Source: an uncultured Eubacteriales bacterium (GTDB taxonomy: Bacteria > Acidobacteriota > Aminicenantia > Aminicenantales > Aminicenantaceae). Taken from it: a DNA stretch of 64,000 nt. Both the position numbers and the translations under genes were made by a program. The stretch spans positions 68,189-132,188 of the forward strand of contig CAYOSH010000004.1 in NCBI GenBank assembly GCA_964406575.1, given 5' to 3'. A model generated the notes under the pieces. It saw only the letters and a program-made list of their open reading frames with translations. It made no database searches and was not told where the DNA came from. Shown piece after piece: positions 11,442 through 12,134 of the stretch; positions within the stretch are counted from its first letter, which is position 1; each line of letters starts with the position of its first letter.

Positions 11442-12134
11442 ATGGGAGGTTTATTCGGCGTTGTCTCAAATCAGGATTGTGTTCTAGAGCTCTTCTATGG
11501 AACAGACTATCACTCCCACCTGGGGACAAAACGTGGAGGACTTGCCGTAAGAGCCCCTGAGGGTTTCACACGATTTATCCATAATATTGAAAATGCCCAA
11601 TTCAGGTCAAAATTCGAAGATGACATCACCAAACTCAAAGGGAATCAGGGAATAGGCATTATCAGTGATACCGAGGATCAACCTGTTCTCATCTGGTTGC
11701 ATCTTGGAAACTACGCCATTGCCACGGTCGGGATCATACAAAACGCGGATGAAATTGCGAGGGAAGCTTTTGGCAAGCACGCGATACACTTTGCCGAGAT
11801 GAGCGGTGGTGAGATCAATCCCACAGAACTCGTCGCCGCCCTGATCAATCAGGAGATGTCTTTTGTCGATGGTATCCAGAATGCCCAAGATGCAATCGAT
11901 GGCTCTTGTTCTATGCTTCTTTTGACTGAAGAGGGAGTTTACGCAGCGAGAGACAAATACGGACGGACGCCGATCGTTATCGGCGAAAAACCAAGAGATG
12001 CGAGACCTTGTGGCGAAGATGAAACTCATTTTGACATCCCTCAAATATCAGAGGCTGCAGGATCTTGTCAAAGCTATCGGACTTCCCAAAGAAAAGGTGT
12101 GCACATACTGCTGGGATGGAGTTGATTCGCGTTA
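11442..12134 (+). pseudogene. PurF-derived class-II glutamine-amidotransferase-like gene. It is catalytically degenerate, lacks a PRTase domain, and its C-terminal tail is in the +1 frame.
   Basis: AGGAGG RBS then MGGLFGVVS. Compare PurF MCGIVGI: here Cys1 is Gly.

The sequence aligns along the whole PurF N-domain, for example GIGIISD/GIGHVRY and [61 protein letters not shown]. R73 and the N101/G102 equivalents are lost.

The annotated frame ends at 12125 with an unconserved tail. The +1 frame (11926-12134) encodes ...LKYQRLQDLVKAIGLPKEKVCTYCWDGVDSR. This matches the PurF C-terminus (LIFQDLNDLIDAV...FECSVFNGVY).

An A5 run at 11986-11990 is the likely shift point. Confidence 0.5.

Follow-up and report, generated by a model that had tools for sequence, protein, structure and literature searches.

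The nearest described counterpart of the gene analysed here is the amidophosphoribosyltransferase PurF of Bacillus subtilis, and its own relatives form a family of PurF-like proteins that start MGG, MSG or MTG in place of MCG. A homology search using the conceptual 230-aa fusion described below retrieved 3,288 relatives; among the matches listed, 106 of 120 start MGG and the named ones are annotated “amidophosphoribosyltransferase”. The listed matches are mostly fragments, and complete members have 465-482 aa (typically ~466-468 aa). The family is encoded in at least 403 GTDB species-representative genomes. Its members come from Aminicenantes, Planctomycetota, Phycisphaerae, Latescibacterota, Gemmatimonadota and Deltaproteobacteria. 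Invariant motifs mark the N-terminal part (GTDYHSHLGT.RGG, FRSKF, GIG.ISD, NPTE and GSC), and the tail ends CTYCWDGVDSR. By sequence, the solved structure closest to a reconstructed full-length ortholog is that of B. subtilis PurF (PDB 1AO0), with an E value of 5e-53. Against the purF profile TIGR01134, an intact ortholog scores 184.7 bits, below the equivalog cutoff of 350, as does the gene of the present study with 35.9 bits.

Alignment to 1AO0, residue by residue, is given in Table 1. The CxxC pair in the tail probably corresponds to the Fe-S ligands Cys437 and Cys440, as judged by profile position. As Cys1, the Arg73 loop and Asn101 have been lost, the family cannot hydrolyse glutamine by the Ntn mechanism; these losses are family-wide and therefore represent a strongly conserved family trait rather than decay at this locus. 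A Cys-less protein could still catalyse an NH3-dependent reaction, in analogy to PurF mutants in Cys1, and the family may act as an NH3-dependent or otherwise altered amidophosphoribosyltransferase. Comparison of the same-strand neighbours of 48 intact members against Pfam revealed no conserved operon partner, so that the context gives no clue to the function of the family, and full-text searches found no literature on a Cys-less bacterial PurF paralog. In two orthologs, L004:7100-7130 (GCA_000405545.1 ASOK01000009) and L020 (Ca. Aminicenans sakinawicola AWNV01000015), the reading frame is shifted near a C9 run at about codon 383, which is probably a homopolymer sequencing error; the same 383-aa product is encoded on the Logan contig SRR3951778_174 (L005).

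In the window, i.e. the whole stretch of 64,000 nucleotides that was analysed, the family is represented by an ORF at 11442..12125 (+) that encodes 227 aa and starts MGGLFGV. The former gene still has its signal for translation initiation, with a Shine-Dalgarno-like element at 11428..11436 ahead of the ATG at 11442. Upstream of the gene, a scan for promoters and terminators was uninformative on the + strand. Residues 3-186 of the ORF match positions 2-189 of the 432 positions of TIGR01134 (E 5e-9, 35.9 bits), and Pfam GATase_7 also matches the N-terminal residues. In the AlphaFold2 model of the product, residues 1-183 have pLDDT values mostly of 82-96, in contrast to ~50 in the tail, and the top PDB match of this model in Foldseek is again 1AO0, with an E value of 3e-12. 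The N-terminal piece is an Ntn-type pseudo-glutaminase domain that has Gly at the position of Cys1 and stops ~45 residues before the domain end. A sequence-only reading of this DNA had already aligned the N-terminal part with the PurF glutaminase domain and pointed to Gly in place of Cys1; the profile, Pfam and Foldseek matches bear out the former, and the latter can be read in the sequence and aligned to 1AO0. The same reading held that the equivalents of R73 and N101/G102 were gone, which is correct for the deleted Arg73 loop and for Asn101, replaced by Val, but not for Gly102, the equivalent of which is kept (ATVG). Its description of the domain as a degenerate GATase is misleading, because the substitutions are family-wide and 70 of the 71 family columns conserved at >=95% are kept in the N-terminal piece, the exception being S86L, which adjoins R85W.

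For the rest of the protein, neither Pfam nor NCBIfam gave a PRTase match to the window ORF. The sequence-only reading had likewise seen no PRTase domain; the PRPP loop and most of the domain are indeed gone, but 13 codons (QEMRDLVAKMKLI) remain, so that two deletions must be distinguished rather than one. Past the A5 run, the +1 frame reads ...MRDLVAKMKLILTSLKYQRLQDLVKAIGLPKEKVCTYCWDGVDSR* and ends at 12135. This tail matches the purF profile only weakly (positions 398-429, E 0.14); in tblastn against residues 432-468 of an intact ortholog, the match reaches an E value of 2e-16 with 86% identity, which confirms the earlier placement of a PurF tail in the +1 frame behind an A5 run at 11986-11990. 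As had also been predicted, removal of one A from this run yields a continuous ORF of 230 aa. Overall, the remnant carries the family-specific N-terminal motifs and lacks the full-length architecture with its four Fe-S cysteines and an in-frame CTYCW.

Table 1. Features of the PurF-like locus in window coordinates, followed by the state of key PurF residues in the Cys-less family
Feature	Position	Strand	Content and basis
Shine-Dalgarno-like AAGGAGG	11428..11436	+	a few bases 5' of ATG 11442; read directly from sequence
Segment A, ancestral codons 1-183 (of 468)	11442..11992	+	92.8% nt identity to L095; 87% aa identity to L008 residues 1-183
A5 run, conserved GAA AAA codons (E182 K183)	11986..11990	+	ortholog comparison
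Junction 1, AAAACC microhomology, 395-nt out-of-frame deletion	11987..11992	.	L095 alignment
Segment B, PRTase-core remnant, ancestral codons 316-328 (QEMRDLVAKMKLI)	11993..12030	+	94.1% nt identity to L095 gene nt 947-984
Junction 2, in-frame 318-nt deletion of ancestral codons 329-434	12030..12031	.	three-way alignment with L095
Segment C, ancestral codons 435-468 and stop (LTSLKYQRLQDLVKAIGLPKEKVCTYCWDGVDSR*)	12031..12135	+	98.1% nt identity to L095, identical peptide
Read-through end of the called ORF, out of frame, 44 aa (PRDARPCGEDETHFDIPQISEAAGSCQSYRTSQRKGVHILLGWS)	11991..12125	+	pLDDT ~50
Cys1 nucleophile (B. subtilis PurF)			Gly in the family; G2 aligns to Cys1 of 1AO0
Loop with Arg72 (E. 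coli Arg73)			deleted in the family; 1AO0 alignment
Asn102 (B. subtilis numbering)			Val in the family; 1AO0 alignment
Gly103 (B. subtilis numbering)			kept in the family; 1AO0 alignment
Fe-S ligands Cys236 and Cys382			conserved in the family; 1AO0 alignment
DSIVRGT PRPP loop			conserved in the family; 1AO0 alignment

Intact orthologs occupy the same position in related genomes. At 90% identity, the window ORF clusters with a second protein, P0271. This protein has 468 aa, and the six contigs that encode it come from five JGI samples and one Logan run. It shares 94% aa identity with the remnant over residues 1-183, and its tail is identical to the +1-frame tail of the window. Its locus L095, obtained by looking up the 90% cluster, has flanks that are 88-93% identical to the window at the nucleotide level and retains the same gene order from SurE to a LacZ-like gene. 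A degenerate-pattern scan of metagenome contigs yielded two further loci, L008 and L009, each with a 468-aa gene at ~76-81% nt identity. The common order runs through Sm_multidrug_ex/VTT, radical SAM, creatininase, glycosyltransferase, a 408-aa protein and DUF3014 to the PurF-like gene, which is followed by a protein of ~275 aa on the minus strand, PAS-GGDEF, an M48 peptidase, TauE and the LacZ-like gene. The flanking genes of L095, L008/L009, L004 and L007 match those of the window, which places all of these genes at the orthologous position. A tblastn search with the intact ortholog L008 found no second PurF-like gene in the 64-kb window. Across the family, an intact ORF of 465-493 aa ending ...CTYCWDG.. 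is present in 69 of the 72 assessable GTDB species-representative loci; breakage was judged on these loci, since the protein length lists consist mostly of fragments and frameshifted entries and are unusable for this comparison.

Several further observations concern the surroundings of the gene. In megablast, only the tRNA-Pro(GGG) at 1742-1817 aligns between the window and the distant relative L004 (97% over 76 nt). For the downstream gene at 12194-13084 (-), which has no Pfam match on record, the longest ORF has 296 aa with a TTG start, in comparison with 252 aa as called in the identical contigs and 275 aa for the ortholog in L008 and L095; its start codon is thus uncertain. The TauE-family gene has 324 aa in L095 (13159-14133) and ~248-251 aa in the window lineage (16107-16862), which could be a difference in start site or in length.

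Comparison with the L095 gene accounts for all of the missing sequence. The window gene has 694 nt against 1,407 nt in L095, and the 713 nt that are absent are the sum of 395 and 318. Using L008 as the query, tblastn recovered three colinear pieces, corresponding to residues 1-183, 296-328 and 432-468. The pieces were placed against the orthologs by local and offset alignments, as a four-way MAFFT alignment of the DNA misplaced the distal window pieces. Counted from the start codon, the middle piece, segment B, is now in the +1 frame; it falls in the tblastn match to residues 296-328 of L008, and the same peptide is found in P0271. Segment C carries the CxxC pair of Fe-S ligands and, being in the +1 frame, is not translated from the start codon.

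At junction 1, the L095 gene has two copies of AAAACC, at nt 546-551 (GGC GAA AAA CCG, encoding G-E-K-P) and at nt 941-946 (CAA AAC CAA, encoding Q-N-Q). The window sequence matches the left copy as far as 11986 and the right copy from 11993 onwards; the AAAACC at 11987-11992 is common to both. In L008, L015 and L016 the repeat extends to nine nucleotides, AAAATCAAG, at both sites and 395 nt apart, whereas in L017 and L018 one of the two copies differs by one base. The deletion removes codons 184-315, which encode the end of the N-terminal domain (residues 188-230 of 1AO0), the Fe-S ligand Cys236 and the first half of the PRTase. As 395 equals 3x131 + 2, the sequence downstream of the junction falls into the +1 frame. 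The second deletion removes the PRPP-binding loop EDSIVRGTQ, the Fe-S ligand Cys382 and the helical C-terminal region. Its parental sequences in L095 are ...CTCATT|CCC on the left and ...CTCAAA|TTGACA on the right, where the sole visible repeat is short and imperfect (CTCATT versus CTCAAATT). Deletions between short repeats are classically ascribed to replication slippage or to RecA-independent illegitimate recombination, and we infer that one of these processes acted here; given the weak microhomology in the closest relative, the mechanism at junction 2 is less clear than that at junction 1.

The structure of the locus is reproducible. Over 12.7 kb and 1.1 kb, respectively, contigs of Logan SRR8556602 and JGI 3300031585 match the window with 100% identity, and a contig of JGI 3300031359 differs from it at two of 9,668 bases. 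The same junctions and the same A5 run are present in these contigs from three independent samples and assemblers. Moreover, the genes on either side are complete and coding density in the window is high, which argues against general assembly damage. Assembly collapse is an implausible source of the deletions, because repeats of 6-9 nt are far below the k-mer sizes of assemblers.

Altogether, the stretch at 11442-12135 is very probably a recently inactivated pseudogene of a PurF-like gene of 468 codons. The intact ortholog in L095 occupies the same locus at 91-93% nt identity, and the 395-nt and 318-nt deletions are disabling. A recent pseudogene had been among the possibilities listed by the sequence-only reading, and it is the only one of them that is supported, by the intact syntenic L095/P0271 gene, the two deletions and the barely degraded codons. 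That reading had also taken an intact canonical purF with near-identity to both pieces as the mark of decay; intact full-length genes are indeed the best matches to both pieces, but they belong to the Cys-less PurF-like family and are not canonical. The ancestor was a single-copy, monocistronic gene of ~468 codons, from a family with the B. subtilis-type fold, four Fe-S cysteines and an intact PRPP loop, although without Cys1. In the Aminicenantes-related lineage of the window, two spontaneous internal deletions took 713 of the 1,407 nt. One (395 nt) joined the short direct repeats AAAACC, which correspond to AAAATCAAG in more distant relatives, and shifted the remainder into the +1 frame, and the other (318 nt) left the frame unchanged. 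What remains can give no more than 183 residues of an incomplete N-terminal domain followed by 44 nonsense residues. Because the PRPP site and the Fe-S cluster are gone, this remnant is most likely non-functional, and the lineage would have lost whatever the PurF-like enzyme does.

The state of the surviving codons gives an indication of age. The N-terminal piece has dN/dS values of 0.04-0.06 against distant orthologs, and the tail differs from those of L006 and P0271 at synonymous sites only, with an unchanged peptide; as the surviving codons are barely degraded, the inactivation must be recent. We polarised the differences between the window and L095 with five outgroups. In the N-terminal piece, the window branch has seven nonsynonymous and eight synonymous changes, in comparison with two and eight on the L095 branch, a difference that is not statistically significant. 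The changes on the window branch include R85W and S86L at conserved positions. This pattern suggests that relaxed selection on the remnant has begun, after the lineages split at ~91% nt identity.

The sequence-only reading had also considered a domain-deleted, non-catalytic protein derived from PurF, in which the 183-residue pseudo-glutaminase module, with or without a tail, would be expressed as a stand-alone non-catalytic or regulatory protein. Against the pseudogene, the start codon, the Shine-Dalgarno element and the ORF of 227 codons persist, and a truncated polypeptide could be made; in addition, the N-terminal piece models confidently and is well conserved. However, such conservation is equally expected of a young pseudogene, and the window branch shows more nonsynonymous change than its intact sister, with two changes at conserved residues. 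Judged against 1AO0, the fragment ends short of the Ntn domain boundary and runs into nonsense residues, for which no homologs were found beyond the identical contigs, and a stable fragment is unlikely to result; a functional enzyme can be ruled out. Nor is the architecture, about whose recurrence the earlier reading had asked, shared by any other lineage: both L095 and 69 of the 72 species representatives carry the full-length gene. We therefore give a functional domain-deleted protein only a slight chance of being correct.

An argument for a selected module comes from an independent deletion in P0007, a Planctomycetota-like member, which also begins after IG.K183. At L010:2590-3471, and likewise in L011-L014, an in-frame deletion fuses residue 183 (AIG|CK) to ...GCKFLNFS and thereby takes out about 200 residues of the PRTase core, which leaves an ORF of 293 aa. 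Five contigs, each of a different sample, have identical DNA here. The left breakpoints of this deletion and of that in the window lie within the same three codons. In L006:768-2130 (JGI 3300041085), an Aminicenantes-type gene with 85% aa identity, a 47-nt out-of-frame deletion removes FVKYTPTWPRSFMPQN. On its right, this deletion ends within AAAATCAAG, the repeat at the right-hand side of junction 1 in the window (the QNQ site); this rests on a single contig, for which an assembly error is possible. In our view, the recurrence of breakpoints in P0007 and L006 is either coincidental or due to mild deletion hotspots in A-rich conserved codons. That the 183-residue Cys-less Ntn module is an autonomous unit retained after loss of the PRTase, with recurrent selected shedding in two unrelated lineages, is rated as very improbable.

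The sequence-only reading also considered a homopolymer sequencing error or phase variation at the A5 run. On this view, which can be widened to an assembly error, the true gene would have A4, or alternate between A4 and A5, and encode the 230-aa fusion. Indeed, dropping a single A restores a continuous frame, but the restored product would still be devoid of any PRTase catalytic element, and the 395-nt deletion fully explains the change of frame. The run is invariant in all contigs, including those of the three independently assembled samples. Moreover, GAA AAA with its five A's stands in frame in the intact orthologs L095, L008, L015 and L016 (the corresponding sequences are CAAAAA in L017 and GATAAA in L018), so that the run is ancestral and represents no slippage site or sequencing error. 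Five A's are also too short for the efficient slippage known from contingency loci. By comparison with these orthologs, the apparent A5 frameshift is the out-of-frame joint of the first deletion, and an error or a phase-variable tract has next to no probability. Equally improbable is a programmed +1 ribosomal frameshift or transcriptional slippage at GAA AAA CCA that would join the N-terminal domain to the tail: the tail peptide is perfectly conserved against P0271 and L006 because the gene recently shared an ancestor with intact genes, where this tail is in frame, all orthologs are single-frame ORFs without a two-frame arrangement, there is no recognisable slippery or stimulatory motif, and an Rfam scan of 10800-12800 found no riboswitch or frameshift element.

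The locus itself is of little weight. It is a clean case of gene loss by short-repeat deletion, in which a larger deletion has left what looks like a frameshift in a homopolymer. The 227-aa ORF should carry a pseudogene flag in annotations and should not be listed as a novel protein of the GATase-only kind. Of greater interest is the intact parent family, a highly conserved Fe-S-type look-alike of PurF that universally lacks the glutaminase nucleophile. Its dispensability in the window lineage hints that the family may not be the sole essential route to phosphoribosylamine.

Among known systems, the canonical PurF of the B. subtilis [4Fe-4S] type (EC 2.4.2.14; PDB 1AO0/1GPH; TIGR01134) is the closest with a solved structure. 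The intact family shares with it colinear domains, the equivalents of all four Fe-S cysteines and the DSIVRGT PRPP loop, but differs in the replacement of Cys1 by Gly, the deletion of the Arg73 loop and the change of Asn101 to Val; the remnant, in addition, is devoid of the PRPP-binding loop of type I PRTases (DDSIVRGTT). Compared to the Cys-less PurF-like family, the window gene is the syntenic ortholog with the same N-terminal motifs, tail and flanking genes, yet it is devoid of codons 184-315 and 329-434 and runs out of frame after codon 183. Bacterial pseudogenes formed by deletion between short direct repeats offer the third comparison. The second junction of the window departs from them in having an imperfect repeat only, whereas the endpoints on repeats of 6-9 nt with one copy kept, the out-of-frame product and the intact orthologs in sister lineages are all shared with such pseudogenes, among which this gene is nothing unusual.
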